Of a stretch of 64,000 bases of DNA, positions 281-23,341 are shown piece by piece; positions within the stretch are counted from its first letter, which is position 1; each line of letters begins with the position of its first letter. The position numbers and the translations under genes are program-made. This DNA is from an uncultured delta proteobacterium (GTDB lineage Bacteria; Myxococcota_A; Polyangia; Fen-1088), in assembly GCA_963796685.1 (NCBI GenBank), contig CAWCMR010000010.1, forward strand, positions 128,001 to 192,000, in the 5' to 3' direction. Under the pieces are notes generated by a model, which had not been told where the DNA came from, made no database searches, and saw only the letters and a program-made list of their open reading frames with translations.

Positions 281-697
281 TCACCACTCGGGGCTGGGCG
301 GGTCAGCGTAGTCGACCTCGGCGAGGTCGGACGTGCCCGAAAGCTCCGCCTGTGGCGGGGGGCGCGCAGCGGTGCGGAGCGGGGCTTGGCTGGGGATTCC
401 GAGGTGGTCCAGAATCTTGCGTATCGCTTCTGGCTTTGTGATCGCGGCCAGGATCTTCATGCGCCCATGGCACTTTGGGCATGTCAGCGCGTCTGTCATG
501 AACACGCGTTTCAGAAGGAGGGCCCAAGGCAGTCGACTGACTCTTGGTATCTTGGTGATGTCGATGTCGCTGGATTCGCCGGTGCCCGCCTTGTCGGTGG
601 CTACCGAATCGGCGCCCGCCGCATCTGGCGTGGACGGCGCTGGGGGTGTCGGCACCACCTTGGCGCGGTCCTTCGCCGCAGGACCGAAGATCCCGTG
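281..697 (-). pseudogene. IS91-family transposase C-terminal fragment
   Basis: HGIFGPAAKDRA...WALLLKRVF..DALTCPKCHGRMKILAAI..PEAIRKILDHLG, the typical IS91/ISCR C-terminus. Confidence 0.85.
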
Positions 698-1047
698 TTA
701 TGCGGAGCGCTCGATTATGCGGAGTTCAACCGTCCCCAAGTCCCGAGGCTCGCGTGTCCTGCGGACTGGACCGTCGCTGACTCCGCATAATATCAAGCCG
801 ACGTCACCCAGGAGCGGAGGTCAGCGGTGTCTTGCTGGGCATCAGCGATGCGATGAGACGGTCCGGCGGCCGGAAGCGCCCGGGGCGTAGTCGGAGGGGC
901 ACGATGGACTCGATAGCCTCGATCTTCTCGGTCGGATCGGCCTGCAGGTAGATCTCGGTGGTCGACTGGCTCGTGTGTCCGAGCCAGAGCGACACCTTGC
1001 GGAGATCCCCGGTGGCCCGGAGCGTGTCCAACGCGCATGTGTGCCGC
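698..1047 (-). mobile_element. RIT-B element remnant (ritC end only)
   Basis: Terminal repeats TTATGCGGAG(C/T) at 698 and 715 and an inverted copy at 780-790; essentially identical to 16497-16846. Confidence 0.85.
804..1047 (-). pseudogene. C-terminal fragment of RIT-B RitC tyrosine recombinase
   Basis: RHTCALDTLRATGDLRKVSLWLGH...TTEIY carries the tyrosine recombinase LGH and catalytic Tyr motifs. Confidence 0.85.
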
Positions 1048-1067
1048 TTATGCCGTGCTCGGCATAA
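1048..1067. repeat. 20-bp near-palindromic linker of RIT-A, between cores TGCCGC (1042-1047) and GCGGCA (1068-1073)
   Basis: TTATGCCGTGCTCGGCATAA is the exact reverse complement of 16847-16866. Confidence 0.9.
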
Positions 1068-1166
1068 GCGGCATTATGCCGAGTCCCCGGTTATGCCGAG
1101 TTGCCCGCCATTGCATGCAGGAATCACGGGGACTTCGGGTTCGCTTACGTGCGCGACTCGGCATAA

Positions 1167-2165
1167 TCAAAGGCTCTGTAGGAAGGCGAGGAGCTTGTCG
1201 TCGGGGTGGAAGCGAGCAGGTCGCGCTGCCGAGGGTGCTGTCTTGGCCAGCGCCCGCTCTTTGAGCTGGAGACTGGCAGCGAAGTAGATCTGCGTGGTCT
1301 CGACCGACTCGTGACCAAGCCAGAGCGCGATCACCGAGCTGTCGACACCGGCTTGAAGGAGATCCATTGCCGTCGAGTGGCGCAGCACGTGCGGAGACAC
1401 ATGCTTCTCCCTCAGCGAGGGGCAGCGGATCCGAGCGACCTGCACGTGTTTCGCGAGCAGGTACTCGACGCCGTCGCGACTGAGGAAACCGCCCCGCGCG
1501 TTGGGGAAGAGGGGCTCGGTCCCGGTGGCGGCACGTTCGCGCAGCCACGCCCGGAGGACCGAGACGGCCTCTTTGCGCAGGGGCGTGCAACGTTCCTTGC
1601 GGCCCTTGCCGAGGCAGTGAACGTACGCGCCGGGTCCGAGGACCACGTCCTGCACGTTGAGCGCGGCCAGCTCGGATACGCGCAGCCCGGTCTGAACGGC
1701 CACAAGGAGCATGGCGCGATCGCGCCGGCCGGACCATGTGGCCTTGTCGGGAGCTTCGAGGAGTGCGTCGATCTCGGGCCGGGACAGGAAGTGGACGAGC
1801 TCGCGATCGTATTTCTTGCCCTGCATGGCCAGAACCCTCTGGATGACGGCGCTGTAGTCGGGCGCCTGGAGGGCGGCGTACTGGAAGAAGGAGTGGATCG
1901 CCGCGAGCCTGGCGTTGCGGGTGCGCGGAGAGTTGCCGCGGTCCTTCTCGATGTGATCCAGGAACGCGCCAATCGTTGGTGTGTCGAGGTCGTCCAGTGC
2001 GAGCGCCGAGGGAGTCTTCTTCAGGTGCTGCTTCGTGAAGGCCAGCAGTAGGCGGAAGGTATCGCGATAGCTCTGCACTGTATGTGGACTTGCTTGACGC
2101 TGGCGCAGGAGATGGTCCACGAAGAAGGACTCAAGCAGCGCAGGGAATCCGTGGGAGGGCTTCAC
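1167..2165 (-). CDS. RIT tyrosine recombinase RitC
   Basis: TGLRVSEL, GKGRKER, HVLRHS, LGH and TTQIY motifs. Confidence 0.9.
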   Translation of the reverse strand: MKPSHGFPALLESFFVDHLLRQRQASPHTVQSYRDTFRLLLAFTKQHLKKTPSALALDDLDTPTIGAFLDHIEKDRGNSPRTRNARLAAIHSFFQYAALQAPDYSAVIQRVLAMQGKKYDRELVHFLSRPEIDALLEAPDKATWSGRRDRAMLLVAVQTGLRVSELAALNVQDVVLGPGAYVHCLGKGRKERCTPLRKEAVSVLRAWLRERAATGTEPLFPNARGGFLSRDGVEYLLAKHVQVARIRCPSLREKHVSPHVLRHSTAMDLLQAGVDSSVIALWLGHESVETTQIYFAASLQLKERALAKTAPSAARPARFHPDDKLLAFLQSL

Positions 2166-3097
2166 GGCGACGTCCTATCTCGCTCCAGGAGCGACATGGC
2201 GAGGCTCATCAACTCGGGCACTGCGGTCAGGTACCAGTAGGTATCACTGACGTGGGTGTGCCCGAGGTAGGTCGACAGCTGCGGCAGGTGCCGCTCCACA
2301 TCGACTCCTGCCCGGTACCAGCGCAGCATGGTGTCCACGGCCCACCGATGCCGAAGGTCATGCAGACGCGGCCCATGACCGTGACGACCTTCAGGACCAC
2401 GAAGCCCAATCCGGCGAGACAGATGGACGAAGGTGTCTTCTGCAGTGTTCTTCACCACCCGGGCACCTGTCTCGCCGACGAAGAAGCTTCTCGTCCGTGG
2501 TGTTGGATGAACGCGATCACGGAAGCGTGCGTACCGGCAAAGTGCCAGTTTCGTCGATCGATGAATGGGCACCAGCCGGGTCTTCCCGAATTTGGTCCGG
2601 CGGATTGTCAGGATCCCGCCTTCGAGGTCAACATCCTCGCGGTCGAGAGCGATCGCCTCGCTGATCCTCAGACCGGCCACGGTGAGCAGGCCAAGCAGCG
2701 TGACGTAGGTCTGAGCACGAAGCCCCGTCTGCGATGGGAGCCGTGCCGCCGCATCCATCAGCCGCATGATCTCGTCCTCGCTGTATATGTAGGGGCGCTT
2801 GCGTTGATACCGAGCCCGGAGGAGCCCGAGGGCAGGGACCTCGGTGCGAGAATCGGTGGCGCGCCAATACTGTGCAAAGAGCCGGACCGCCGATAGCCGG
2901 CTGGCCCAATACACGGGCTGGGTCTTGGTCGGCCGCACGGCCCATTCGACGACCAGATCGTTGGTAATGAACGGAGCCTTCCGCTGCTCCATGAAGGACA
3001 CAAATTGCAGCAGTAACCGCCCCGAGCGGTCGAGCTTGTAGCCCAGACGGCGTCGCAGCGACAGGTACTCCTCGGCGCCCTCGCGGAGCGTATTCAT
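2162..3097 (-). CDS. RIT tyrosine recombinase RitB
   Basis: MNTLREGAEEYLSLRRRLGYKL...GLRISEA...TKFGKTR...HDLRH...YLGH..VSDTYWY; 4-bp overlaps with both neighbours. Confidence 0.9.
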   Translation of the reverse strand: MNTLREGAEEYLSLRRRLGYKLDRSGRLLLQFVSFMEQRKAPFITNDLVVEWAVRPTKTQPVYWASRLSAVRLFAQYWRATDSRTEVPALGLLRARYQRKRPYIYSEDEIMRLMDAAARLPSQTGLRAQTYVTLLGLLTVAGLRISEAIALDREDVDLEGGILTIRRTKFGKTRLVPIHRSTKLALCRYARFRDRVHPTPRTRSFFVGETGARVVKNTAEDTFVHLSRRIGLRGPEGRHGHGPRLHDLRHRWAVDTMLRWYRAGVDVERHLPQLSTYLGHTHVSDTYWYLTAVPELMSLAMSLLERDRTSP

Positions 3098-4325
3098 CGC
3101 CTGCCTCCTGGCCATGCAGGAGCGAGCGCACGTAGCGCATGGAAGTCTACCTTCGCGTAAATCGTCGTCGTATCGGCTCGACGGTGTCGCAGGACCTGCC
3201 CGATCTCGGTAAGGGTCGCTCCTCGGCGCAGCATCGAGCAGGCGAGCGCATGGCGGAGGATGTGCCCGCCTTTGCGTGGTGGGTCCAGTTCGGCGCGTTC
3301 CAGCGCTCGCTTCACGATCGTACAGACCGCGCCCGTGGTTGCGAAGCCACGCCGCGGCGCTCTCGCGCGGACGAAGACTCTCCGGCACGAGCATGCTGGG
3401 CGGCCATGGCGCAAGTACCGGGCGACGGCCTTGCCGACATCGGACGGCAACGGGAGGACGTCTTGCCGCCCACCCTTGCCGTGGACCCGCAACGTGCCTG
3501 CGGCCCAGTCGAAGTCTGCCAGATCCAGGCTCACGACTTCTCCACCGCGGAGGCCGAGTCGTGCCATCAGCATAATGACCGCGTGGTCGCGCAGGCCGGC
3601 TTCGGAGTTTCTTCGTCGACAGCGGCGCAACAGATGCTCGACGTCGCGCGCGGGGATCGATTTCGGCACCGTTGAGAAACGCCAGCAGGCGACCGCGGGA
3701 ACCGTGGCCGCGAGGTCTGCAGCCAGGGCTCTTTTCACGTGCACCCACCGCAGAAAACCGCGTAGGGCGGTAACCATCAGAGCGGCTCTCTTTGGATGGA
3801 CCACGTGAACATGCCGGACCAGAAATTCACCCGCATCCTGGGGCCCGAGCGCATTGAGGTGCACCTCCTGCCGTCGAACCGCTCCAGGAGGAACGAGCGG
3901 ACAATGGGCAGGTAGTTGATCTGAGTCAAGACGGACAAGCCGCGGTCCACCAACAGATACCGGCCGAACTCACTCACGATCCGCCCGATCGCAGTGTCAT
4001 CGACCTTGACGGGCGCTGGCGGCGCAAGACCGGCGGAACGGACCCGTTCAAGGACATCACGCAATGTCGCTGCGTCTCCACGCCGGGGTACGCAGGGATG
4101 GCGCCGGACAAAGCGGGCTACGGCCTGCTCGTCGACCTCCTCGACAGTCAGTCCTCGCCGTCCAAGCCAGTCTCCGAACTTCGCTGCCAGGCGCACCTTG
4201 CACGCCACGGTCGCAGGCGGATATCCCCTCTCAGTGAGCGTTTTTGCAAACGTGTCGAGGTGCGGACCCAAGGGGCCAGCGCGCAGTCGTTGCCATTTCA
4301 GAAAATCGTCGTGCATCCGGGGCAT
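3094..4325 (-). CDS. RIT tyrosine recombinase RitA (1-bp frameshift near 3866, possibly an assembly error)
   Basis: Two ORFs that join into the intact 410-aa protein seen at 17014-18246. Confidence 0.85.
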
Positions 4326-5557
4326 GTGTCCTCCTTCGGCCCGGTGGCCAGAAGGAGACGACGACGCCCTGGTTATGCCGAGTCCGCAAGCCCACCTGCC
4401 GAGGAAATCGCCGTTGATCGCGCCAGATCGAGAGGCTCACTCGGCATAACCGGGGACTCGGCATAATGGCGCAAGACGTGGGCGCCTTTGAATGGAAAGG
4501 TCAGCCGCGCACGCGTGAAGGCCAGTCGGACAGCGGCTGTCACAGCCGAGGAGCTGAGCGGCTGGCCCACCGGCAGCTGGTGCCGGACGAACATGTGACG
4601 ATCGTCGGTGTGCGGCCGGCCGCGGCGTAGGTAGTCAACCAGTGCGCGCCCCACCGGTGCGGGCAGCGGCAGGACACTGGCCCGCCGCTCCTTTCCGCGA
4701 CCGACTCGCAAGGTGCCCGCCCGCCAATCCACGTCATCGAGCAACAGCGCAGCGACTTCGCCGGCCCGCAAGCCAAGCCCAGCCATGCACGAAACCATCG
4801 CGTAGTCCCGCCGTCCAGTCGCCGCGGTCAAGTCGAACGACGCAAGCAAGGCGGCGAGTTGCTCGTCGGACAGACCTCGGGGAAGATTCCCTCGGCGCCA
4901 ATGCGCCACCTTGGGAACAGCGGCTGCCAGTGTCCCTTCGCACAGGCCAGCGACTTGCGCAAATCGAAGGAAGCTACGCAACGCCGTTCGGACAAGCCCC
5001 GCCGCGCCCGGCGAGTACTTTCTGGTCTGCTCCGACACGAAGCCAATCAATTCCTTGGGCCCAAGCCGGCGCAGATCGATCTCGCCAGTCCCGTAGAGGG
5101 AAACCAGAAACCGACGAACGTGCAAGACGTTGCCCTGGCTGGTGGCATCGGTCACTCCGCACGTGTTTTGTCGGTAGGTCCTGAAGGACTCGAGCATACG
5201 GTCCACAGGCGTCTGCACTGGCCGCTGTGGGGGGGTGGCTACGCCCTGTGCGCGCAGCACGGCCAACACGTGGTCCAGTGCCGCCCGCATGTGACAACGC
5301 AACCCGTGTGGCACCCGACACTTGCATCGCGGGAGGTGCCCTTCCAGGAACGACGCTAGGGTAACTTCCCCCACCGCGTTCGGGCTGATCCTTTTGAGAT
5401 CTAACCAATGGGAGAAGTGGCCGGCTGCGCACAGGTACGATTGCCCGACTCTCGGTGTATGACCGCGCTTCTCCAAATGCGCAGCGACATCGTCAAGGAT
5501 CCCGCCCAGCGCTCCGCCGCGAAGGCGAGCCAGCACATAGTCATAGGTGAAAAACTT

Positions 5558-6968
5558 GGCTCTCCTGACATCTTCGTAAAGGGAGATCTCGTAGGTGCGA
5601 CGCACGTCGCCGACGGAGATGTGGGCGGCATGAGTTCCGGGTGAGGTGGAGACGAAGTGCGCACGGGCACCTGGGGTATCGTGTGGCTTGTCTGGAACCC
5701 ACAAGCCCAGGAGCCCATGCGCGCAACCACCCTATTCCGAAACCTACTCCAATTTCCACATACCCGTGTCCTGGCGGTCGAATTCGATCTGCTTGGCATA
5801 TTGGTGCACGTGGCGCCAACGACGACCGTTCCCTACTGTTCAGGCTGCGGATGTCGGGTCCATGACGTGTTCGATGCTCGGGCTCGGAACTGGCGGCATC
5901 TGGACGCGTGCGGGATGGAGGTTCTTCTGCGCTACACCCTGCGCAGGGTTGACTGTCCTCGGTGCGGCGTGGTCATCGAGATGGTCCCTTGGGCCGAGCC
6001 GAAGGTCGGCTTCACGCGTGACTTCGAGGACCATGTGGCCTATCTGGCCCAACAAGCAAGCCAGACGATGGTGGCCGAAACCATGCGCATCGCGTGGCGC
6101 ACCGTCGGCGCCATCATCCAGCGGGTGGTGCCGCGGCACCGAGATCCTAGCCTTCTCCTCGAGGACCTCGAACACATCGGCGTCGACGAGTTGTCGTACC
6201 GGCGGCACCATGAGTACGTCACCGTCGTTGTCGACCACGTCTCGCAGCGGGTCGTCTGGGCACACGAGGGCAAGAACGCTGCGACGCTCGGCTGCTTCTT
6301 CGACGCTCTCGGCCCGGAACGAACCAGCAAGCTCAAGACCGTCACCATCGACATGTCCGCGGCCTACATCGACGCGGTCACCTCGCGAGCGCCACAAGCG
6401 CAGATCGTCTTCGACCGCTTCCACGTTCAGAGACTCGTGCAGGAAGCACTCGACGAGCTCCGGCGTGCGGAGGTCCGACTCCTGGAGGACACCGACGAAC
6501 GCGGGCAACTGAAGAAGACCAAGTACCTTCTGCTCAAGAATCCGTGGAACCTATCCAGGGCCGAGTCTGAGAGGCTTTCGACCCTCCCGAAGACCAATGC
6601 CCGACTCTATCGCGGCTACCTGCTCAAGATCGCCATCTGCGACATCCTCGGTCGTCGCCAGGTCAACGTCGTCAAACAGAAGCTCGAAGAATGGATCAGT
6701 TGGGCCAGGCGATCCAGACTACCTTCCTTCAAGAAGGTCGCCGCGACCATCAAGAAATACCTGGACGGCATCGTGGCCATTGTCGCCACAGGGCTCAATA
6801 ACGGAAGAACCGAGGGCCTTAATGGCAAGATCAGGGTCATCACCCGCAGGGCCTATGGCTTCCACAACGCTCAAGCCCTCATTGGCTTCATCTTCCTCTG
6901 CTGCTCAGGCGTTGTCCTTCATCCCGTCTTCAAGGTGCCCGCGCTTCCATGAAGATGTCAGGAGAGCC
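5558..6968 (+). mobile_element. ISL3-family insertion sequence
   Basis: IRs GGCTCTCCTGACATCTTC / GAAGATGTCAGGAGAGCC; target duplication AAAAACTT / AAAAACTG. Confidence 0.92.
5717..6952 (+). CDS. ISL3-family transposase
   Basis: Zn finger CSGCG...CPRCG, IGVDE, TIDMS, FDRFHV, NGRTEGLNGKIRVITRRAYGF. Confidence 0.92.
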   Translation: MRATTLFRNLLQFPHTRVLAVEFDLLGILVHVAPTTTVPYCSGCGCRVHDVFDARARNWRHLDACGMEVLLRYTLRRVDCPRCGVVIEMVPWAEPKVGFTRDFEDHVAYLAQQASQTMVAETMRIAWRTVGAIIQRVVPRHRDPSLLLEDLEHIGVDELSYRRHHEYVTVVVDHVSQRVVWAHEGKNAATLGCFFDALGPERTSKLKTVTIDMSAAYIDAVTSRAPQAQIVFDRFHVQRLVQEALDELRRAEVRLLEDTDERGQLKKTKYLLLKNPWNLSRAESERLSTLPKTNARLYRGYLLKIAICDILGRRQVNVVKQKLEEWISWARRSRLPSFKKVAATIKKYLDGIVAIVATGLNNGRTEGLNGKIRVITRRAYGFHNAQALIGFIFLCCSGVVLHPVFKVPALP

Positions 6969-7106
6969 AAAAACTGCTCCAGCATGAGTGCTCCTTCCTG
7001 GCCAACAGGCCATCAAGAGCGCCCAAGACTATGCTGACAAACAGAACCCACCAATTCGAGCGACCCACCGGGAAATCCAGCACAGATCGCGTGCGGGTCA
7101 CGAGCA

Positions 7107-7166
7107 ACTCAGCATAATCCGAAACTCAGCATAGGACGGTCTATGCTGAGTTCAGCATAGTCCATC
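7107..7166. repeat. RIT-C terminal repeat, core GACGGT, 20-bp linker CTATGCTGAGTTCAGCATAG and core TCCATC
   Basis: ACTCAGCATAA-N6-ACTCAGCATAG (7107/8-7134), core 7135-7140, palindrome 7141-7160, core 7161-7166. Confidence 0.85.
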
Positions 7167-7757
7167 CATCACGATGACGTGGAAGTGAACATTCAGATTC
7201 AGCGACGACCCGAACCGTTGCACGACGGTGAGGCTTCCGGTCTGCAGTCGGCCTCGAAGCTTGCGCATGCGTGCGCGGCGGCGGAGGTCGGAGTTGATGG
7301 CGCTGATGAATGCACCTAAAACCACGCTCGTGGCGTCGGGTGAATAGGCCATTTTGAAGCGCAAGGCATAGGGTAGCGAGAGCACATATTGCCGAGCAGG
7401 CACCTGGGGAAAAAGGTAATCTACGCAGAAAGCTGCCGTGTCTGCCATGCGGCGGCCAAGACAGCTCGGGCAAAATCCACGCCGCTTACACGCGAACGCC
7501 ACGACTCTGCTGTGCCCACAGTCTTTGCATCGGACGCGAAGAAGGCCGTGCACGAGGATGCCACAACGAAGGTAAGCCTCGATCTCGTCAAGCACGAAGG
7601 CGGGCAGCTCGCCGCCTCCTGATTCCAGATCTGCCAGGAACGTCGCCCAGTGTTCCTGTATCGTTCGATAAAGCAAAGTCGCTTCGAAGCTATGCCGCTC
7701 ATACGAGCCCGCGGGCGCGTGGGTGTGACAGCTTGCTGCTGGTTGCGTGGAAAGCAC
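7161..7757 (-). pseudogene. IS91-family transposase N-terminal fragment
   Basis: Zn-binding region YLRCG...CKDC...ACKRRGFCPSC and HUH motif NVHFHVIVMDG, where it is cut. Confidence 0.9.
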
Positions 7758-7860
7758 CAGCGGAAGTTCTCGGCAACACGGAGATACTTGTTGCTAGCGG
7801 AACGGGCCGACGACGAGACCTGTCAGGCCGACAGGAAGTGATGGATGCGACCTCGCCTAG

Positions 7861-8394
7861 GCCATAGGCGATTCGAAGAGGTCCTTTTTGAGCGTCGGAG
7901 AACCCTGCCGGACCGCATCGGCGCTGCCACGAGCACTTCTGCGTAGTGCGCTTGACCGGGTTTCTGGGGCCTGACGGGAGCTTTCTCAAGCACGCAGGGC
8001 AGTCTACTGCATCCCGCCCTTGTCGACGTGCCGTCAGTTCAGCCAGTCTCCGCCCTCGCCACCAGATTGCGAGGGAGGTGGTCGTGCGGGCCAGAGTTTT
8101 GGGGCGTCGGTGGGTAGCCTCATGGCAGACAGGATTTTCTGAGAAGCTGGCTCCAAGAAATGTAGTGCGAAAGTGGCAGTGAAGGCTTGTCCTTTTCCTC
8201 GGGTGTCGCCACGGCGGGGACGGGGACGACTTGGGAGGTGGGATGATCGCGGCCAGTCTGGCAATGAGGGCCAGCGGCGCAAGTTCGATCGACGAGGTGG
8301 CGCCAGACCAAGGCCGCTTGAGCTCCAGCCTCACGAGTTTGTCATCCAGGATCTTCAGCCGGGCGTCGTCGCGACCTCGACCTGTGCAACGCAC
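7861..8394 (-). pseudogene. third IS91-family remnant (degraded transposase C-terminus and possible oriIS)
   Basis: VRLELKRPWSGATSSIELAPLALIARLAAIIPPP, then ...KILSAMRLPTDAPKLWPARPPP; oriIS-like CTCTTCGAATCGCCTATGG near 7862-7880 (minus). Confidence 0.65.
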
Positions 8395-8483
8395 AAAGAG
8401 GCCCGGAGAATGAAGGCTTCTCCGGATCTCGATCCGAACCCTTCATTTCTCATCCGTCTCTGTGTTCTCTGTGTCCTCTGTGG

Positions 8484-11400: not shown

Positions 11401-12622
11401 CGAGGTGATCGAGCAGGCGCGACCAACCTGGCACGCGCAAAAGCGGCGCCAGGGCCTCGGCCAGCGGATCCGCGGGATCGCGCAAGGCATCCAAGCACTC
11501 CTGGAGCGCCGTCGGACCGTGCGGGCAACGCGAGGGTTCGTGGCAGCGCGTGCACTCCAGACGCAGAACGCCGCTTTCCCAGGCAGCCAAGTGCAGGAAA
11601 AGCATCGTCTCGCCTTCGATGTTGGGCGTCCGCCCCTCGGAGACGGCCCATTCCCGATAGCTCAGGGTGAGCGCATCGGAGCCCACATCGATCCGTCCGG
11701 GCAAGAAGGTGCCGACGGGACGCGGCATGGCCGCGGCCGGCAGAAGCTCTTGTTGCCGTCGCAGGAGATCCTCGAAGCGTCGCAAGAAGGGATCGTCGAG
11801 AGGTCGGGCACGGTCGGAACGTTCGGCCTGCCGCTTGCTCGCGATGGCCACCGCCTGCGCCGCGCGGTGCAGGTGGGACTTGGCCATCCCTACGAGCTGG
11901 GAAGCCAGCGTGGCGCGGAAGTGCCTTGGGGCCGTGAGACTGGCCGGCGTGACCAACACCGACTCGCGGATGGTGCCGGGCAGTCCCTGGATTGCGAATC
12001 CATAGAACGAACGTCGCAGTTGGTCGAGGTTCACCTTGTCGGCGAGCCGATCTTTTACGCCGTATCGCTCGGCCCAGCGGTCCAGCGCCTCGGCATTTTG
12101 TGGCGGTGCCTCGACGGCGGGCAAGCTTTCGCGTGGCCTCGGCGGTGGCAACAGGTGCAAAGGATGGGCATCGGTGGACGACTCGAGCTCCTCACCGACG
12201 TAGGGAACAGGGTCGATTCCATCGTCATCGTCATCATCGTCATCGCCGGCTTCGATGTCATCGTCTTTGTCGTCGCCGGCTTCGATCTCACGGTGGACGT
12301 TGCCATCTCGCTCGCTCTGCGCGTCCGCCAGGCGTGAGCCGGGTCCGGCGGCGTGCATCTGCAGCCAATGCCACAGATCCTCGAGCACTAGTCGGGCGAT
12401 CTCAGACGAGTATCGATTGGCGAGCAAACCCTCTGCCTCGTTGGTGCAAAGGTCGCGGAGGCGGCCACTCCTCAGGATGCCGGCCACCGTGCTCACCGCG
12501 CTGACGACCTTGCGGGAAGACCCATGAGAATCGAGAAATTCTCTGACAGATAGGTCAAGCGCCGACGCGTCGCCGGTGACTTCCAGCGCTGCGGGAATGG
12601 CTGCGAGGCTCTTCGGGATCAT
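8484..12622 (-). CDS. SNF2/SWI2-family helicase (frameshifts near 10750 and 9930)
   Basis: LADDMGLGKT, IIDEAQ, LTGTPIEN, FSQF, GGTGLNL, WWNP, QATDRAHRIGQ; SWIM-like C-x-x-C...CPH in the N-terminal part. Confidence 0.88.
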
Positions 12623-12771
12623 GACGGGGTTCTTTATCGGGCAGAGAGGCGCGTCAGTTGCCTCCCTTCTCGGTTATCACATCTGGCCCGCGTTGGGCGA
12701 GCAGCAACTAACGCTGCGCGAGAATGGTGTTTGGGCGATTCGCAGCTCGCCTCGGTTTCTTCAAGCGACCG

Positions 12772-15312: not shown

Positions 15313-15639
15313 TGCCCGCGCACTATACCCATTGGACCATGCCTTAGCGCGAATTTAACCCTTCAGGATTTTCGCATCTTCTCCGACTGCCTCCATGCTC
15401 ACGTGCCCGCCCACCAAACTTTTTGATCAGGACGGAGACTAGGGTGCGATCCAGGTTTGACCGTTCGACGTGCAGGCCATCTTCCCGGTGTCGGCGTTCC
15501 CCGTGTAGAGCCAGGCGGTGACCGTCTGCGAAGCTCCGGCGGCCGTCGACTTGACCCGGCACCGTCCATCGGCGCCCAGGTGCGAGCATGCCGATGAGGC
15601 GGCACCGTCCGTGCCGGTGCAGGCGTTGCGCTGCCCCGT

Positions 15640-15819
15640 CCGATGGCGACGGGGATGAGCAAGCCCGCGCCTGTCTGCGTCGGCGAGAAAGCGAGCGAGA
15701 GAACCGTTGTCCGCAACCAGGTCCTTGCACGCCGGGCACTCGTCAAGATGCCGCTTGGCCTCGGGCGAGGCGGTGTCGCCGCCACCCAGGACCCTTTGCC
15801 TGATCTGCGTGCAGTCCAT
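15640..15819 (-). pseudogene. degenerate partial copy of the anti-sigma gene at 30878-31720
   Basis: MDCTQIRQRVLGGGDTASPEAKRHLDECPACKDLVADNGSLARFLADA versus MDCAQIRQRVLGGGDAASPEAKRHLDECPACRDLVEDNGSLARFLADA; internal deletion to AGLLIPV. Confidence 0.8.
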
Positions 15820-15918
15820 GTCAGCTATCTCGCGGCATTTTCTCATCGCTGCCTGGTAGGTCTCGTCCGCGGCGCGTTCCGCTAGCAACAAATATCGCCG
15901 TGTTGCCGAGAGGTCCCG

Positions 15919-16464
15919 TTGGTGCTTTCCACGCAACCAGCAGCAAGCTGTCACACCCACGCGCCCGCGGGCGCGTATGAGCGGCATCGCCCCGAAACAA
16001 CTTTGCTTTATCGAACGAGAAAGGTCACGCGCTACGTAGGGCAGCTCACCGGAGAGGACAGGGATCAGCAGCTGACCCTTGAGCATCTGGCCAATTCTTC
16101 CGTGCAAGGGCTGGTCGCGACGGGGCCACGCCGAGGCTGTCGAGTGTTGCGCCTAGGAGGTACCCGCGAACATGCCCAGGCGGCCATCATAGGCAAGAGA
16201 TGTGCAGATGTGGCCGGTTTCAACGTGCACGCCAACGTGCGCGTGGGCGCCAACGACCGCGACGGCCTCGAACATTTGTGCCGATACCTTGCTCGACCAC
16301 CCATCGCGAATGACCGATTGCAAGAGCTGCCCGACGGCCGACTTGCCTTGCGCTTCAAGCAAGTTTGGCGGGATGGCACGACCCAAATCGTATTCACGCC
16401 GCACGAGCTGATAGAGAAGCTGATCCCATTGATTTCCCGCCCTCGCTGCCATCTGGTCCGATAA
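15919..16464 (+). pseudogene. IS91-family transposase N-terminal/middle fragment (Zn and HUH region deleted)
   Basis: Same start as copy 1 (LSTQPAASCHTHAP), then GFNVHANV...LEHLCRYLARPP...WRDGT...HLVR*HG. Confidence 0.85.
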
Positions 16465-16470
16465 CACGGC

Positions 16471-16490
16471 TTATGCGGTGCTCTGCATAA
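16471..16490. repeat. 20-bp near-palindromic linker of RIT-B, between cores CACGGC and CCCGTG
   Basis: TTATGCGGTGCTCTGCATAA. Confidence 0.88.
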
Positions 16491-16602
16491 CCCGTGTTAT
16501 GCGGAGCGCTCGATTATGCGGAGTTCAACCGTCCCCAAGTCCCGAGGCTCGCGTGTCCTGCGGACTGGACCGTCGCTGACTCCGCATAATATCAAGCCGA
16601 CG

Positions 16603-16846
16603 TCACCCAGGAGCGGAGGTCAGCGGTGTCTTGCTGGGCATCAGCGATGCGATGAGACGGTCCGGCGGCCGGAAGCGCCCGGGGCGTAGTCGGAGGGGCA
16701 CGATGGACTCGATAGCCTCGATCTTCTCGGTCGGATCGGCCTGCAGGTAGATCTCGGTGGTCGACTGGCTCGTGTGTCCGAGCCAGAGCGACACCTTGCG
16801 GAGATCCCCGGTGGCCCGGAGCGTGTCCAACGCGCATGTGTGACGC
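16603..16846 (-). pseudogene. RIT-B ritC C-terminal half
   Basis: Continues PHTLRH from 20267 as RHTCALDTL...LGH...TTEIY. Confidence 0.88.
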
Positions 16847-16866
16847 TTATGCCGAGCACGGCATAA
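16847..16866. repeat. 20-bp linker of RIT-A copy 2, between cores TGACGC and GCGGCA
   Basis: TTATGCCGAGCACGGCATAA. Confidence 0.9.
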
Positions 16867-17013
16867 GCGGCATTATGCCGAGTCCCCGGTTATGCCGAGT
16901 GAGCCTCTCGATCTGGCGCGATCAACGGCGATTTCCTCGGCAGGTGGGCTTGCGGACTCGGCATAACCAGGGCGTCGTCGTCTCCTTCTGGCCACCGGGC
17001 CGAAGGAGGACAC

Positions 17014-18246
17014 ATGCCCCGGATGCACGACGATTTTCTGAAATGGCAACGACTGCGCGCTGGCCCCTTGGGTCCGCACCTCGACACGTTTGCAAAAACG
17101 CTCACTGAGAGGGGATATCCGCCTGCGACCGTGGCGTGCAAGGTGCGCCTGGCAGCGAAGTTCGGAGACTGGCTTGGACGGCGAGGACTGACTGTCGAGG
17201 AGGTCGACGAGCAGGCCGTAGCCCGCTTTGTCCGGCGCCATCCCTGCGTACCCCGGCGTGGAGACGCAGCGACATTGCGTGATGTCCTTGAACGGGTCCG
17301 TTCCGCCGGTCTTGCGCCGCCAGCGCCCGTCAAGGTCGATGACACTGCGATCGGGCGGATCGTGAGTGAGTTCGGCCGGTATCTGTTGGTGGACCGCGGC
17401 TTGTCCGTCTTGACTCAGATCAACTACCTGCCCATTGTCCGCTCGTTCCTCCTGGAGCGGTTCGACGGCAGGAGGGTGCACCTCAATGCGCTCGGGCCCC
17501 AGGATGCGGGTGAATTTCTGGTCCGGCATGTTCACGTGGTCCATCCAAAGAGAGCCGCTCTGATGGTTACCGCCCTACGCGGTTTTCTGCGGTGGGTGCA
17601 CGTGAAAAGAGCCCTGGCTGCAGACCTCGCGGCCACGGTTCCCGCGGTCGCCTGCTGGCGTTTCTCAACGGTGCCGAAATCGATCCCCGCGCGCGACGTC
17701 GAGCATCTGTTGCGCCGCTGTCGACGAAGAAACTCCGAAGCCGGCCTGCGCGACCACGCGGTCATTATGCTGATGGCACGACTCGGCCTCCGCGGTGGAG
17801 AAGTCGTGAGCCTGGATCTGGCAGACTTCGACTGGGCCGCAGGCACGTTGCGGGTCCACGGCAAGGGTGGGCGGCAAGACGTCCTCCCGTTGCCGTCCGA
17901 TGTCGGCAAGGCCGTCGCCCGGTACTTGCGCCATGGCCGCCCAGCATGCTCGTGCCGGAGAGTCTTCGTCCGCGCGAGAGCGCCGCGGCGTGGCTTCGCA
18001 ACCACGGGCGCGGTCTGTACGATCGTGAAGCGAGCGCTGGAACGCGCCGAACTGGACCCACCACGCAAAGGCGGGCACATCCTCCGCCATGCGCTCGCCT
18101 GCTCGATGCTGCGCCGAGGAGCGACCCTTACCGAGATCGGGCAGGTCCTGCGACACCGTCGAGCCGATACGACGACGATTTACGCGAAGGTAGACTTCCA
18201 TGCGCTACGTGCGCTCGCTCCTGCATGGCCAGGAGGCAGGCGATGA
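17014..18246 (+). CDS. RIT recombinase RitA
   Basis: LGLRGGEV, HGKGGR, GHILRH, VLRHR..TTTIYAK. Confidence 0.92.
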   Translation: MPRMHDDFLKWQRLRAGPLGPHLDTFAKTLTERGYPPATVACKVRLAAKFGDWLGRRGLTVEEVDEQAVARFVRRHPCVPRRGDAATLRDVLERVRSAGLAPPAPVKVDDTAIGRIVSEFGRYLLVDRGLSVLTQINYLPIVRSFLLERFDGRRVHLNALGPQDAGEFLVRHVHVVHPKRAALMVTALRGFLRWVHVKRALAADLAATVPAVACWRFSTVPKSIPARDVEHLLRRCRRRNSEAGLRDHAVIMLMARLGLRGGEVVSLDLADFDWAAGTLRVHGKGGRQDVLPLPSDVGKAVARYLRHGRPACSCRRVFVRARAPRRGFATTGAVCTIVKRALERAELDPPRKGGHILRHALACSMLRRGATLTEIGQVLRHRRADTTTIYAKVDFHALRALAPAWPGGRR

Positions 18247-19178
18247 ATACGCTCCGCGAGGGCGCCGAGGAGTACCTGTCGCTGCGACGCCGTCTGGGCT
18301 ACAAGCTCGACCGCTCGGGGCGGTTACTGCTGCAATTTGTGTCCTTCATGGAGCAGCGGAAGGCTCCGTTCATTACCAACGATCTGGTCGTCGAATGGGC
18401 CGTGCGGCCGACCAAGACCCAGCCCGTGTATTGGGCCAGCCGGCTATCGGCGGTCCGGCTCTTTGCACAGTATTGGCGCGCCACCGATTCTCGCACCGAG
18501 GTCCCTGCCCTCGGGCTCCTCCGGGCTCGGTATCAACGCAAGCGCCCCTACATATACAGCGAGGACGAGATCATGCGGCTGATGGATGCGGCGGCACGGC
18601 TCCCATCGCAGACGGGGCTTCGTGCTCAGACCTACGTCACGCTGCTTGGCCTGCTCACCGTGGCCGGTCTGAGGATCAGCGAGGCGATCGCTCTCGACCG
18701 CGAGGATGTTGACCTCGAAGGCGGGATCCTGACAATCCGCCGGACCAAATTCGGGAAGACCCGGCTGGTGCCCATTCATCGATCGACGAAACTGGCACTT
18801 TGCCGGTACGCACGCTTCCGTGATCGCGTTCATCCAACACCACGGACGAGAAGCTTCTTCGTCGGCGAGACAGGTGCCCGGGTGGTGAAGAACACTGCAG
18901 AAGACACCTTCGTCCATCTGTCTCGCCGGATTGGGCTTCGTGGTCCTGAAGGTCGTCACGGTCATGGGCCGCGTCTGCATGACCTTCGGCATCGGTGGGC
19001 CGTGGACACCATGCTGCGCTGGTACCGGGCAGGAGTCGATGTGGAGCGGCACCTGCCGCAGCTGTCGACCTACCTCGGGCACACCCACGTCAGTGATACC
19101 TACTGGTACCTGACCGCAGTGCCCGAGTTGATGAGCCTCGCCATGTCGCTCCTGGAGCGAGATAGGACGTCGCCGTGA
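18243..19178 (+). CDS. RIT recombinase RitB
   Basis: Same protein as 2162-3097. Confidence 0.92.
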   Translation: MNTLREGAEEYLSLRRRLGYKLDRSGRLLLQFVSFMEQRKAPFITNDLVVEWAVRPTKTQPVYWASRLSAVRLFAQYWRATDSRTEVPALGLLRARYQRKRPYIYSEDEIMRLMDAAARLPSQTGLRAQTYVTLLGLLTVAGLRISEAIALDREDVDLEGGILTIRRTKFGKTRLVPIHRSTKLALCRYARFRDRVHPTPRTRSFFVGETGARVVKNTAEDTFVHLSRRIGLRGPEGRHGHGPRLHDLRHRWAVDTMLRWYRAGVDVERHLPQLSTYLGHTHVSDTYWYLTAVPELMSLAMSLLERDRTSP

Positions 19179-20173
19179 AGCCCTCCCACGGATTCCCTGC
19201 GCTGCTTGAGTCCTTCTTCGTGGACCATCTCCTGCGCCAGCGTCAAGCAAGTCCACATACAGTGCAGAGCTATCGCGATACCTTCCGCCTACTGCTGGCC
19301 TTCACGAAGCAGCACCTGAAGAAGACTCCCTCGGCGCTCGCACTGGACGACCTCGACACACCAACGATTGGCGCGTTCCTGGATCACATCGAGAAGGACC
19401 GCGGCAACTCTCCGCGCACCCGCAACGCCAGGCTCGCGGCGATCCACTCCTTCTTCCAGTACGCCGCCCTCCAGGCGCCCGACTACAGCGCCGTCATCCA
19501 GAGGGTTCTGGCCATGCAGGGCAAGAAATACGATCGCGAGCTCGTCCACTTCCTGTCCCGGCCCGAGATCGACGCACTCCTCGAAGCTCCCGACAAGGCC
19601 ACATGGTCCGGCCGGCGCGATCGCGCCATGCTCCTTGTGGCCGTTCAGACCGGGCTGCGCGTATCCGAGCTGGCCGCGCTCAACGTGCAGGACGTGGTCC
19701 TCGGACCCGGCGCGTACGTTCACTGCCTCGGCAAGGGCCGCAAGGAACGTTGCACGCCCCTGCGCAAAGAGGCCGTCTCGGTCCTCCGGGCGTGGCTGCG
19801 CGAACGTGCCGCCACCGGGACCGAGCCCCTCTTCCCCAACGCGCGGGGCGGTTTCCTCAGTCGCGACGGCGTCGAGTACCTGCTCGCGAAACACGTGCAG
19901 GTCGCTCGGATCCGCTGCCCCTCGCTGAGGGCGAAGCATGTGTCTCCGCACGTGCTGCGCCACTCGACGGCAATGGATCTCCTTCAAGCCGGTGTCGACA
20001 GCTCGGTGATCGCGCTCTGGCTTGGTCACGAGTCGGTCGAGACCACGCAGATCTACTTCGCTGCCAGTCTCCAGCTCAAAGAGCGAGCGCTGGCCAAGAC
20101 AGCACCCTCGGCAGCGCGACCTGCTCGCTTCCACCCCGACGACAAGCTCCTCGCCTTCCTACAGAGCCTTTGA
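19175..20173 (+). CDS. RIT recombinase RitC
   Basis: Differs from 1167-2165 by one residue (LRAKH vs LREKH). Confidence 0.92.
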   Translation: MKPSHGFPALLESFFVDHLLRQRQASPHTVQSYRDTFRLLLAFTKQHLKKTPSALALDDLDTPTIGAFLDHIEKDRGNSPRTRNARLAAIHSFFQYAALQAPDYSAVIQRVLAMQGKKYDRELVHFLSRPEIDALLEAPDKATWSGRRDRAMLLVAVQTGLRVSELAALNVQDVVLGPGAYVHCLGKGRKERCTPLRKEAVSVLRAWLRERAATGTEPLFPNARGGFLSRDGVEYLLAKHVQVARIRCPSLRAKHVSPHVLRHSTAMDLLQAGVDSSVIALWLGHESVETTQIYFAASLQLKERALAKTAPSAARPARFHPDDKLLAFLQSL

Positions 20174-20266
20174 TTATGCCGAGTCGCGCACGTAAGCGAA
20201 CCCGAAGTCCCCGTGATTCCTGCATGCAATGGCGGGCAACTCGGCATAACCGGGGACTCGGCATAA

Positions 20267-21033
20267 TGCCGCAGCGTGTGTGGCGAAACACTTCTGCCGG
20301 CCAGCGATGGGCACGCGACCGCTGCGGCGGCAACGTGCTTGCGAAGCACATATTCGAAGCCCGAGCGCGACATAGGGTGAGCGGTGGCCGCGAGGAACAA
20401 CTCGGGACAGGAGGCAGTGCCTCGGATGGCGAGCCAGGCGCGGATAGCGTCGCCTACTTCCTTCCACAGCAGGAGCGCGCGCTCCTTGCGACCCTTGCCG
20501 AGCACGCAAATCTCGACGTAGCGGCCGTCGAAGCGCACGTTGTCGAGGCGCAGCCCGACGAGCTCGGAGACACGCAATCCGCCAGTGAGTGCGAGGTAGA
20601 GCATGGCGCGGTCGCGAATGCCGAGACGCGACGCTGGGTCCGGCGCGTCGAGGACGGCACGCGATTCCGTGGCCGACAGATGTTTCACCAGGCGGGTGTC
20701 GGTGCGCTGCAACGGGATCGCAAGCACGCGCTGGATCTGGTCGAGCGCCGCGGGAACGCGATACTCGATGAAGTGCATGAAGGATCGGACGGCGGCCAGC
20801 CGCGTGTTGCGTGAGCGGGCGCCGTTGCCGCGCTCGCGTTGGATGTGGTCGAGGAATGCCAGCACGAGAGACGCGTCGATGTGCTCGATCTGGATCTCGG
20901 AGGGCGTTACGCCCAGGCGCCTGCTTGCGAACGCGAACAAGAGTTGGAAGGCATATGCATAGGCGACGCGCGTATTTTCACAGGTGATCCGCTCACGAAG
21001 AAACGCGGTGATGTGTGGAGCGATCGGGGTCAT
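20267..21033 (-). pseudogene. RIT-B ritC N-terminal part, cut at LRH by RIT-A
   Basis: MTPIAPHITAFL...GGLRVSEL...GKGRKER...SPHTLRH. Confidence 0.9.
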
Positions 21034-23176: not shown

Positions 23177-23341
23177 TGTTTCCTCCTCGGTGGACGGGTC
23201 GGGATCATCCCGGCCCTGAGAGGAGGACACCTCCGTTATGCTGAGCCGTCTAGGGCGCGCCACGCGGTCAACTACCCGCCGACACGCAGGGATCGTGACG
23301 GGCACATCGCGGCACTCCGCATAATCGAGCGCTCCGCATAA

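Follow-up and report, generated by a model that had tools for sequence, protein, structure and literature searches.

A 20-base linker that changes ends suggests that RIT elements move through a circular joint with two mirror-image sites

RIT-type elements in the window

RIT (recombinase in trio) elements have been described in many bacteria, among them Cupriavidus metallidurans CH34, and on pHG1 (Van Houdt et al. 2009, 2012; Ricker et al. 2013). They are common in soil bacteria, on rhizobial and Cupriavidus plasmids and in genomic islands. In the available parts of the RIT literature, they comprise adjacent, overlapping ritA, ritB and ritC genes with inverted repeats at the ends, occur in several identical copies per genome and are frequently nested in other recombinase or transposase genes, and their mobility is stated never to have been demonstrated (PMC3414803, PMC2864759). 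A table published in 2023 lists their target specificity and movement as not tested, with no transposition reproduced (PMC10214605). In the accessible portion of a mobilome study, Nielsen et al. (2017) describe two Sphingobium RITs whose ends carry imperfect palindromic repeats (47 and 51 bases) and whose genes lie between direct repeats (42 and 51 bases). The coverage of RITs was raised there and read mapping gave no circle junction; hairpin intermediates were proposed because the RIT DNA was exonuclease-resistant yet showed no such junction (PMC5737581).

The DNA analysed here (the window) is a 64,000-nt stretch of contig CAWCMR010000010.1, assembly GCA_963796685.1; all coordinates are window positions. 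It holds two copies of an element, RIT-A, together with RIT-B and RIT-C sequences (Table 1). RIT-A carries three adjacent tyrosine recombinase genes on the same strand, in the order long RitA, RitB, RitC, with the short frame overlaps of RITs (4-8 bases) at both gene borders. All three proteins match Xer-type tyrosine recombinase models, at scores under those models' own cut-offs, RitA matches Pfam Phage_integrase, and a possible catalytic motif (RH ... Y) can be read in each translation. Each end has two direct 11-mers, TTATGCCGAGT, at a spacing of 17 bases, so that the two ends, one with TTATGCCGAGT-6-TTATGCCGAGT and one with the inverse of this, form terminal inverted repeats; a third 11-mer, inverted, has its inner edge about 93 bases in. 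There are five RIT-A copies on four contigs, with 99.88-100% identity to copy 2. The pHG1 and EbN1 relatives, termed RITs in the literature, match RitC at 57-61% identity.

Table 1. Positions of the RIT features in the window (K, the 20-base linker, a 20-mer palindrome).
Feature	Position	Strand	Description
RIT-A copy 1 (genome copy b)	1074..4466	-	body reversed
Outer hexamer TGCCGC, copy 1	1042..1047	+	
K of copy 1, TTATGCCGTGCTCGGCATAA	1048..1067	+	adjoins ritC end (inverted-repeat end at 1074)
Inner hexamer GCGGCA, copy 1	1068..1073	+	
Hexamer TGGCGC, copy 1	4467..4472	+	linker-free junction; then N-terminal part of RIT-C ritA
RIT-A copy 2 (genome copy a)	16873..20266	+	from ritA-end repeat to ritC-end repeat
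Outer hexamer TGACGC, copy 2	16841..16846	+	
K of copy 2, TTATGCCGAGCACGGCATAA	16847..16866	+	adjoins ritA end (starts 16873)
Inner hexamer GCGGCA, copy 2	16867..16872	+	between K and ritA end; candidate core of the unused site
Hexamer TGCCGC, copy 2	20267..20272	+	linker-free junction
ritA	17014..18246	+	410 aa, Xer-like tyrosine recombinase, additional N-terminal part; HILRH and C-terminal Tyr
ritB	18243..19178	+	311 aa, tyrosine recombinase; ATGA overlap with ritA; HDLRH...LGH...Y
ritC	19175..20173	+	332 aa, tyrosine recombinase; GTGA overlap with ritB; HVLRH...LGH...Y
RIT-B	16497..23341	-	RIT-A copy 2 inserted in its ritC
RIT-B CACGGC (outer), K TTATGCGGTGCTCTGCATAA (16471-16490), CCCGTG (inner)	16465..16496	+	adjoins RIT-B ritC end
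RIT-B hexamer CATGGC	23342..23347	+	linker-free junction
Second RIT-B fragment	692..1041	-	hexamer CCCGTG (692-697), ritC-end repeat, C-terminal part of ritC
RIT-C fragment	4473..7134	-	N-terminal part of ritA and ritA-end repeat
RIT-C GACGGT (inner), K CTATGCTGAGTTCAGCATAG (7141-7160), TCCATC (outer)	7135..7166	+	

The linkers of both RIT-A copies and the hexamers on either side of them had been read in the original prediction as they stand in Table 1. The RIT-A 20-mer pattern occurs twice in the window and zero times in each of 100 dinucleotide-preserving shuffles. The claim that linker and body are both reverse-complemented between the copies is borne out: over 3406 bases the oppositely oriented bodies share 99.88% identity, and the K of copy 1 is the reverse complement of that of copy 2. 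Copy 1 is one base shorter than copy 2, and its ritA frame is broken into two ORFs. On the strand of the target gene, the outer hexamer of copy 2 reads GCGTCA, the Arg codon CGT followed by the beginning of His. RIT-B and RIT-C have the predicted succession of core, 20-mer, core and element end, with the outer hexamer of RIT-C, TCCATC, matching the inverse of the inner GACGGT at only 3/6 positions. The RIT-C fragment is interrupted by an ISL3-family insertion sequence (5557-6968).

The left flank that the two RIT-A copies were predicted to share, which in copy 1 is the second RIT-B fragment, is 99.27% identical between them (692-1101 against 16491-16900), but they are not two simple insertions into one target. 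The flanks of copy 1 are mixed, one side being that of the C12 copy and the other that of the C25 copy, and independent evidence was therefore sought across the whole genome as well as in others.

Permutation, targets and inheritance of the linker

The genome is a 26-contig metagenome-assembled genome rated 88.6% complete. Its five RIT-A copies, which differ by at most two substitutions or by 1-2 bases in length, are all circular permutations of R end-TGCCGC-TTATGCCGAGCACGGCATAA-GCGGCA-L end. Written in body orientation, two of the five read flank-hexamer-K-GCGGCA-L...R-TGCCGC-flank and three read flank-hexamer-L...R-TGCCGC-K-GCGGCA-flank, with the identical asymmetric 20-mer in all five. K differs from the sequence expected from the present ends by one base in RIT-A and by two in RIT-B, and each variant is constant across every copy of its family. 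Because every copy has the same variant, K is passed on from copy to copy instead of being made anew when an element inserts.

RIT-A interrupts other recombinase genes exactly at Arg-His codons, and the gene halves abut without a gap, the flanks aligning to RitC residues 16-262 and 262-329 or to RitA residues 4-358 and 358-406. Judged from these alignments, in which the halves meet at one residue (RitC 262, RitA 358), the 20-mer is absent from the empty target; that it might already have been present there had been named as a test of the original prediction. The insertions are polar: in every Arg-His insertion examined, K is on the side of the C-terminal gene half.

The three RIT-B loci are permuted as in RIT-A, with the unused core inside the element and the used core at one junction. 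In the window copy, the far junction reads GCCATG, the hexamer inside K CACGGG and the one outside it GCCGTG; the corresponding hexamers of the C11 copy are GCCGTG, GCCATG and CCCGTG. One circle, R-CACGGG-K-GCCATG-L, entering a target with GCCGTG would fit both of these loci, and this bookkeeping agrees with the predicted single circle cut at either of two sites.

The linker layout in metagenomes and plasmids

The layout extends well beyond this genome. A pattern scan of metagenomes gave 131 matches to the K layout, spread over 119 loci. The matches share the geometry of the putative dif-like site of RIT-A, ACTCGGCATAA-TGCCGC-TTATGCCGAGC, in which inverted arms of about 11 bases surround a 6-base centre. 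Of the 108 single-match loci, 36 have K at the ritA end and 38 at the ritC end. In 65/131 matches the outer and inner hexamers are exact inverses of each other (0.65 expected on shuffling among loci), and K is a perfect palindrome in 88/131. RitC has relatives in 582 plasmid records, and finished plasmids of Mesorhizobium sp. AR02, A. aromaticum EbN1 and C. necator NH9, as well as pHG1, have the K layout.

These finished plasmids bear on the reading that the layout is an artefact, produced by mis-joined repeats in a metagenome-assembled genome or by a palindrome native to the target sites. The mixed flanks of copy 1 and the fragmented, incomplete assembly speak for it, but both permutations and the layout itself recur in plasmids of cultured strains, the target genes are colinear without K, and mis-joins within the 3.4-kb body could neither create K nor flip its centre. 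We regard an artefact as scarcely credible. Support from reads had been a concern of the original prediction; junctions of the same types are present in further assemblies and in the finished plasmids, the public runs having been searched as 31-mer contigs.

Where K is asymmetric, its orientation tracks that of the body in 7/7 within-family comparisons (RIT-A, RIT-B, the Mesorhizobium plasmid family, the metagenome pairs L027/L051 and L079/L083, and two double-linker elements), as predicted. A diverged pHG1 pair, 94.25% alike and with K at opposite ends, is ambiguous or contrary: its four central K bases give one mismatch if K is fixed to the target and two if it is fixed to the body. This pair is better fitted by inversion in place, whereby the linker-free junction would recombine with the end-core-K stretch and flip the body around a target-fixed K with no excision. 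Such chemistry would be natural with inverted cores, and it shares the prediction of a circle wherever K is a perfect palindrome. It nevertheless predicts a K flipped relative to the body, the opposite of what is found in RIT-A, RIT-B, the AR02 family, L027/L051 and L079/L083, and leaves copies at new loci unaccounted for, which makes it very unlikely as a general explanation. As the origin of the window copies it is refuted, its target-fixed K being contradicted there.

Among copies that were not selected for K and could be read at both ends (n=23), 18 have one K, one has two and four have none. The inverted flanks of the two-K and zero-K copies fit recombination between the two permutations. 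Copies of either kind had not been anticipated, and a circular intermediate accounts for them only through a second event. At one locus, two Ks stand in tandem beside the left end.

This tandem is among the observations that would suit a different origin of K, as a separate, gene-less miniature element of 20 bases (10 from the left end and 10 from the right) that travels with the RIT as a composite. It would insert head to tail at RIT ends, with end plus hexamer as the preferred half-target, and the two-site circle would be a by-product and not a design. K does resemble two terminal 10-mers joined at their inner sides, the near half having at most one mismatch to the adjacent terminus in 95/131 matches and the far half in 87/131. 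On the other hand, all 10 of the K-like palindromes found by scanning the genome belong to RIT-A, RIT-B or RIT-C and none is solo, family-specific K variants persist through independent RIT insertions, and a joined R-core-K form would still be required for K to change ends. We consider this origin quite unlikely.

Hexamers were compared in 26 single-linker elements. All three are alike in 7, the far junction deviates in 6, the outer hexamer in 2 and the inner in 4, and none of these patterns applies in 7; the two outer hexamers differ at at least two positions in 10/26. That either junction may differ from the inner hexamer fits exchange across a 6-base overlap that tolerates mismatches, and not strict target duplication.

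The hexamers also bear on the nature of the intermediate, which might be a folded single strand or a hairpin-ended molecule instead of a double-stranded circle. K would then be the tip, intrastrand pairing would create the arm-core-arm site, and integration of either strand would give the two orientations. Recombination sites formed by intrastrand pairing occur in CTX phage and in integron attC sites. The junction is palindromic across ends, cores and K, the Rit recombinases are Xer-like, and hairpin intermediates are proposed in the available part of the mobilome paper (PMC5737581). A folded strand with a single fixed cleavage, however, predicts the hexamer of the element at a constant junction, whereas, with target hexamers as inferred, it is found at either junction in RIT-A and RIT-B, and both patterns occur among the 26 metagenome elements. 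A folded intermediate therefore appears rather unlikely. The products expected of a circle would be the same for a folded single strand or a tandem copy.

A two-site joint and its comparison with known transposons

We estimate at about 60% the probability that RITs, as circularly permuted elements, move through a joint, R end-core-K-inverted core-L end, that carries two mirror-image sites. The heritable unit is the body (inverted-repeat ends and ritA-ritB-ritC) with one 20-base K and one 6-base core, K uniting the first ~10 bases of the left end with the last ~10 of the right. In the moving form, core, K and inverted core would connect the right end to the left and give a near-palindromic junction. 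This junction would contain two mirror-image dif-type sites of arm, 6-base overlap and arm, each pairing a complete element end with one half of K across the overlap. Crossover in the overlap of either site with a similar target hexamer would leave K beside the ritA or the ritC end, on a constant side of the target and with its direction relative to the body kept. With two mirror-image sites on offer, an asymmetric target could therefore be entered in either orientation. The Rit recombinases would presumably bind the 11-mers and act on a double-stranded circle by classical two-step exchange.

The two-site circle of the original prediction is supported by the permutation, orientation, target and hexamer evidence, and each of its refuting conditions that could be checked came out in its favour; its junction was not found. 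None of the 204 sequences searched contained R-core-K-core-L, the two pattern matches being a tandem K pair and a locus without Rit genes, and no circle junction was seen in any sequence, so that the circle is inferred, whereas the permutation, the inheritance of K, its polarity at the target, the hexamer bookkeeping and the wide occurrence of the layout are shown directly. A more tentative extension, which we hold to be possible but somewhat doubtful, is that all RITs across phyla form a circle whose near-palindromic joint is built on a 20-base 'mini-element' with two dif-like sites, a design not known to have been described for any tyrosine-recombinase transposon. If true, this would account for the failure of published read mapping to recover such a joint.

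A circle with two mirror-image sites would, if correct, give this widespread but little-studied transposon class a concrete mechanism. The layout predicts the exact joint sequence, a minimal substrate of two ends with K and a single core, the strand-exchange overlap and the polarity of insertion, and opens the question of RIT mobility to concrete tests. It also supplies an annotation rule for locating true RIT ends, and helps to account for scrambled "mazes" of recombinase genes, which would be products of recombination between the two permutations.

Known RITs have the same gene trio, inverted repeats, identical copies and nesting as RIT-A, and pHG1 itself has the linker layout. The descriptions, in their available parts, treat genes, terminal repeats and distribution and mention neither an end-switching linker nor two alternative sites. 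Our literature search, which stopped short of Ricker et al. 2013, found no RIT model with a movable linker and two sites. The Sphingobium palindromic and direct repeats of Nielsen et al. may well be end-core-K stretches; the accessible portion of that study takes palindromes as a sign of hairpins and describes neither an end-switching K coupled to the body nor any hexamer bookkeeping.

Transposons of the Tn554, SE and GInt type are likewise driven by several tyrosine recombinases. They form circular intermediates whose 6-base junction carries sequence of the old site to the new one, and have no linker and a single joint in the text and table of the source (PMC10214605). They encode a fourth or non-recombinase protein (TnpC, Srap, GinD) and lack inverted repeats, whereas RIT-A has only three genes, all for recombinases, long inverted repeats and, in our reading, two mirror-image sites.

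The XerC/XerD dif site, the attP of CTX phage and pdif modules have arms of 10-11 bases around a 6-base centre, and CTX phage has two inverted sites close together, both at one end of the integrated phage. RITs have Xer-like enzymes and arm-6-arm sites in common with these systems. They differ in encoding their own three enzymes and in occurring in both insertion orientations, and their two sites share a 20-base palindrome, in contrast to a spacing of about 90 bases in CTX phage.

The linker of RIT-A and its insertion sites

The assembly containing the window amounts to 7.31 Mb in 26 contigs and holds five copies of RIT-A on four of them, which differ by at most two substitutions or by 1 to 2 bases of length. 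The three genes of RIT-A overlap by ATGA and GTGA; their products, Xer-like tyrosine recombinases of 410, 311 and 332 amino acids, all have an HxxRH box and a C-terminal tyrosine. Each end of the element carries a pair of direct 11-mers at a distance of 17 bases and, about 93 bases inward, a third 11-mer that is inverted. Re-reading of the two copies in the window returned the junction sequences originally given (see table), where a 20-base palindromic linker (K) stands between two 6-base cores, next to the ritC end (R) of copy 1 and the ritA end (L) of copy 2. The 20-mer pattern matches twice in the window and in none of 100 shuffles. Relative to copy 2, copy 1 is shorter by a single base and has ritA read as two ORFs, which is either a real frameshift or an assembly length error.

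Coordinates of the RIT junctions and of neighboring features
Feature	Position	Sequence or description
RIT-A copy 1, linker junction	window 1042-1047, 1048-1067, 1068-1073	flank-TGCCGC-TTATGCCGTGCTCGGCATAA-GCGGCA; repeat end at 1074 leads to ritC, minus strand
RIT-A copy 1, far junction	window 4467-4472	...ACTCGGCATAA-TGGCGC
RIT-A copy 2, linker junction	window 16841-16846, 16847-16866, 16867-16872	flank-TGACGC-TTATGCCGAGCACGGCATAA-GCGGCA; repeat end at 16873 leads to ritA
RIT-A copy 2, far junction	window 20267-20272	...ACTCGGCATAA-TGCCGC
Split ritA of RIT-A copy 1	window 3094-4325	ORFs 3094-3864 and 3777-4325
Composite RIT-B::RIT-A	window 16492-23347; L002 3531-10387	6.86 kb
ISL3-family insertion sequence in RIT-C	window 5557-6968	about 1412 bases
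IS91/ISCR-like transposase genes	window 15919-16464, 7152-7757	NCBIfam ISCR clade Ia, Pfam Zn_Tnp_IS91
Repeat	window 7859-8126	about 270 bases
Group II intron in RIT-C	L001 6453-8528 (G000 C12:26453-28528)	Rfam RF02001, RF00029
Tandem linkers	L139 1460-1560	K-core-K-core
pHG1 "maze"	L179 16900-25760	three nested RITs

Read in body orientation, copies a (copy 2 of the window) and c (on contig C11) have the arrangement flank-TGACGC-K-GCGGCA-L...R-TGCCGC-flank, and copies b (copy 1 of the window), d (on C25) and e (on C12) have flank-hexamer-L...R-TGCCGC-K-GCGGCA-flank. In this orientation K is TTATGCCGAGCACGGCATAA in all five copies, which can thus all be described as a single circle, R-TGCCGC-K-GCGGCA-L, opened at different points. 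Compared with the sequence expected from the present ends, K has one changed base (CACGG, not CTCGG), and the change is present in every copy, which indicates that K is inherited and not rebuilt. All flanks are common to copies a and c; these two are a single event. Copy b combines the left flank found in e with the right flank found in d, and RIT-A copies have therefore recombined with one another.

RIT-A is inserted exactly at the Arg-His codons of the HxxRH box in other recombinase genes, namely RIT-B ritC, RIT-B ritB and RIT-C ritA (in the window and in the stretches L001 and L003). Since this box is catalytic, rival RITs are disabled by RIT-A. In alignments, copy a is flanked by RitC residues 16-262 and 262-329 and copy e by RitA residues 4-358 and 358-406, and the left flank of copy d ends in HDIRH within RIT-B ritB. 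An intact target gene has no space for the 26 extra bases, and the halves of the split genes abut at one residue, which answers the check named in the original prediction: K is absent from the empty target. Wherever an Arg-His insertion was examined, in this genome or beyond it, K was on the C-terminal side of the split gene and the K-free junction on the N-terminal side. The outer hexamer of copy 2, TGACGC, reads GCGTCA on the strand of the target gene; this is merely another Arg codon, and TGACGC is therefore the target's version of the core.

A codon test for the Arg-His target was positive in 11 of 120 K-side flanks among the metagenome matches listed, versus a background of 0.46%. It was used instead of a strict recombinase C-terminus signature, which occurred in 3 of 98 K-side flanks and 2 in the control. 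Arg-His homing was also observed in EbN1, AR02 and pHG1, and the pHG1 "maze" consists of three one-K RITs nested at such codons.

The linker in other families

The same layout had been claimed for RIT-B and RIT-C, and K was indeed read in loci of both families. In body orientation, the RIT-B copy of the window reads ...ccgaggat-GCCATG-L...R-CACGGG-K-GCCGTG-ttatcggacc and the copy on contig C11 reads ...gtccgataa-CACGGG-K-GCCATG-L...R-CACGGC-atcctcgg. K is TTATGCAGAGCACCGCATAA in both, and the copies are 99.94% identical over 6857 bases, the inner RIT-A included. A circle R-CACGGG-K-GCCATG-L and a target GCCGTG explain both copies, which gives RIT-B the cleanest hexamer bookkeeping among the families studied here: the core of the unused site would be kept inside the element, and the used site would leave its core at one junction, the target hexamer standing at the other. 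At both loci K is on that side of the target which reads ttatcggac, and a third RIT-B locus (window 692) presents a matching K-free junction on the other side. No empty RIT-B target was found in the genome of the window, and an extra partial match on contig C25 was rejected as it is not an empty site. In the composite of RIT-B and RIT-A, present in the window and in L002 at 99.94% identity, the RIT-B K stands at opposite ends. Either RIT-B moved with a split ritC, receiving help in trans, or the RIT-A insert spread by gene conversion; such help was perhaps provided by RIT-A, the arms of which differ by 1 to 2 bases.

In RIT-C, K adjoins the ritA end in the window; on contig C12 it is parted from the end by a group II intron of 2.08 kb that lies within the inner core, one base beyond K. 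On the Mesorhizobium AR02 plasmid, too, a RIT is adjoined by a gene for a group II intron maturase, and the palindromic joint may attract group II introns. All 10 K-like palindromes of the genome belong to RIT-A, RIT-B or RIT-C; that K should be a hitch-hiking miniature element is considered doubtful.

The RIT-C of the window is interrupted by an insertion sequence of the ISL3 family, with at least 13 further copies in the genome at approximately 99.3 to 99.8% identity. RIT-B and RIT-C lie inside IS91/ISCR-like transposase genes, between which genes for an SNF2 helicase and an MMPL transporter are found. The window also contains a repeat present in at least 13 copies at 84.6 to 86.6% identity, twelve of them on contig C9.

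Metagenome contigs were scanned for GCATAA-N6-TTATGC-N8-GCATAA, yielding at least 131 matches in at least 119 loci; being picked by the K pattern, this sample covers TTATGC-arm families only and cannot reveal zero-K copies. Among the matches listed, the terminal 11-mer is repeated 17 bases inside (at most 3 mismatches) in 121 of 131, K is a perfect palindrome in 88 of 131, and the outer and inner hexamers are exact inverses of each other in 65 of 131, versus 0.65 on shuffling hexamers among loci. Ends were assigned by tblastn with the RitA and RitC of the window, which placed K at the ritA end in 36 and at the ritC end in 38 of the 108 single-match loci among those listed, 34 not being placed. 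A third, inverted 11-mer was found at 90 of 110 ends (loci L022-L140, among the matches listed), with its inner edge most commonly at 82 bases and in other groups near 73, 94 and 104. This spacing of about one helical turn suggests that a phased protein-DNA assembly may form at each RIT end.

Finished plasmids from cultured bacteria carry this layout too, with arms specific to each family: Mesorhizobium sp. AR02 (three copies), A. aromaticum EbN1 plasmid 2, C. necator NH9 pENH92, and pHG1 (three elements). This answers the worry of assembly error and makes it highly improbable that the pattern is an artefact. Arms were found automatically in 6 of the 20 plasmid stretches; with hand reading 7 of 20 were resolved, the other 13 entering no count. 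In the phylum scan, the K pattern occurred in only 2 of 401 genomes, that of the window and G360. A search for K halves matching different L and R termini gave 0 informative ends, because the termini are identical in every element for which both ends were found.

Linker orientation, hexamers and a putative circle

The orientation of K was predicted to co-vary with that of the body, and this was upheld in seven within-family comparisons; one pair from pHG1 is contrary or ambiguous. Only comparisons within one family were counted; agreement of K centres across families was rejected as support because unrelated families need not share orientation. K follows the body in RIT-A, RIT-B, the AR02 family, L027/L051, L079/L083, L024 and L032. 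The three copies of the AR02 plasmid family have K next to one and the same flank, at R in L159 and at L in the other two, L160 and L161; its sequence in body orientation is TAATTCCGGGTTCGGAATTA in each. The metagenome loci L027/L051 and L079/L083 have about 80 bases of terminal repeat in common within each pair and then diverge, so that the members of each pair are opposite ends of a single family, with K flipped when read outward. In the two-K elements L024 and L032, the two Ks are direct repeats. The pHG1 elements e1 and e2 are 94.25% alike, with K at L in e1 and at R in e2. Their K centres, TTCA and TGGA in body orientation, show 2 mismatches, or 1 if K is fixed to the target. The pair is thus nearer to what inversion of the body in place would give, a reading that is refuted for the copies of the window and is improbable overall; from its sequence the pair may reflect such an inversion as a side reaction, or two substitutions.

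In the proposed mechanism, the outer hexamers, which are direct repeats, would recombine and join K to the far end, giving R-core-K-inverted core-L. This joint would be a near-palindrome with two equivalent sites, each composed of an element end, 6 bases and half of K, and either site could recombine with a target hexamer. Since the two sites would be mirror images, K would always come to lie on the same side of the target, the body would enter either way, and both sites would be used about equally. On the sequence comparisons, a circle with two mirror-image sites, opened at either, is the most likely mechanism, with a probability of roughly 0.6. That the intermediate is instead a folded single-strand or hairpin form seems unlikely.

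The circle joint was not seen in any of the 204 sequences searched. The 21 public runs are metagenomes available as 31-mer contigs (share of at most 0.36). The joint was absent from X1 to X4, four of the public sequencing runs, the 31-mer contigs of which fall short of the at least 34 bases required to tell R-core-K-core-L from the two integrated forms. A go-back joint in X2 was rejected as a circle joint, being an ordinary insertion in another recombinase gene with K at the ritC end.

Three hexamers (far junction, inner, and outside K) were compared in each of the 26 one-K elements among the loci listed. All three are alike in 7; far and outer are alike with a different inner one in 4, inner and outer with a different far one in 6, and inner and far with a different outer one in 2, and 7 follow none of these patterns. 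In 11 of the 26 the far hexamer equals the outer one, and in 10 the two have at least two differences. Target duplication by fill-in would make these two always alike, and the observed mixture says otherwise. We infer that exchange at both edges of an overlap of 6 bases, if some mismatches were tolerated and then segregated at replication, would fit the mixture, and that the same step could account for the hexamers of RIT-A and RIT-B.

Copies with two linkers or none, and published accounts of RITs

Among the metagenome loci listed, 35 have both ends, 26 with one K and 9 with two; L032 and L093 are the same element. The two-K elements have the 32-base core-K-core as direct repeats, and their outer flanks are inverted copies of each other, with an inverted match of about 130 bases for L032 and of 16 bases for L061. 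The flanks of L006 are the C-terminal portions of two different recombinase genes. This two-K structure is what homologous recombination between a K-at-R copy and a K-at-L copy would produce; the other product of such an exchange should lack K and be bounded by inverted N-terminal halves. A zero-K copy of this kind, with SPHVIRH on both sides, stands on EbN1 plasmid 2 beside a 100% identical one-K copy, and on pENH92 zero-K and one-K copies share hexamers and flanks as the swap predicts.

Of 23 copies not selected for K, with both ends read, one K is present in 18, two in 1 and none in 4. On the AR07 plasmid are two of these four (L165, L166), where K is absent within approximately 850 to 900 bases beyond the ends and the flanks are discontinuous; a nearby insertion or recombination may hide K. 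Two unrelated RITs have a similar stretch (GCGTTTTTAGCT...) directly at their left ends (L165, L166 of the AR07 plasmid; L038), and a hairpin-bearing sequence stands beside the RIT end in L166 and again in the flank of L173. RIT junctions may be targets of other mobile DNA, which may hide K. In L139 tandem linkers adjoin the left end of a RIT, and the flank outside them is the C-terminal part of a recombinase gene.

In the portions of the literature consulted, RITs are described as gene trios with terminal repeats, nested in other mobile genes, and their movement is stated never to have been shown (PMC3414803, PMC2864759). The consulted part of PMC12306157 is irrelevant, as "RIT" is another term there. 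No description of an end-switching linker, of a coupling between linker and body, or of two alternative sites was found in the portions of the RIT literature searched, with Ricker et al. 2013 and supplements (PMC5737581, PMC3414803) outside that scope. Palindromic repeats at RIT ends are reported in the part of PMC5737581 consulted, where hairpins are proposed.
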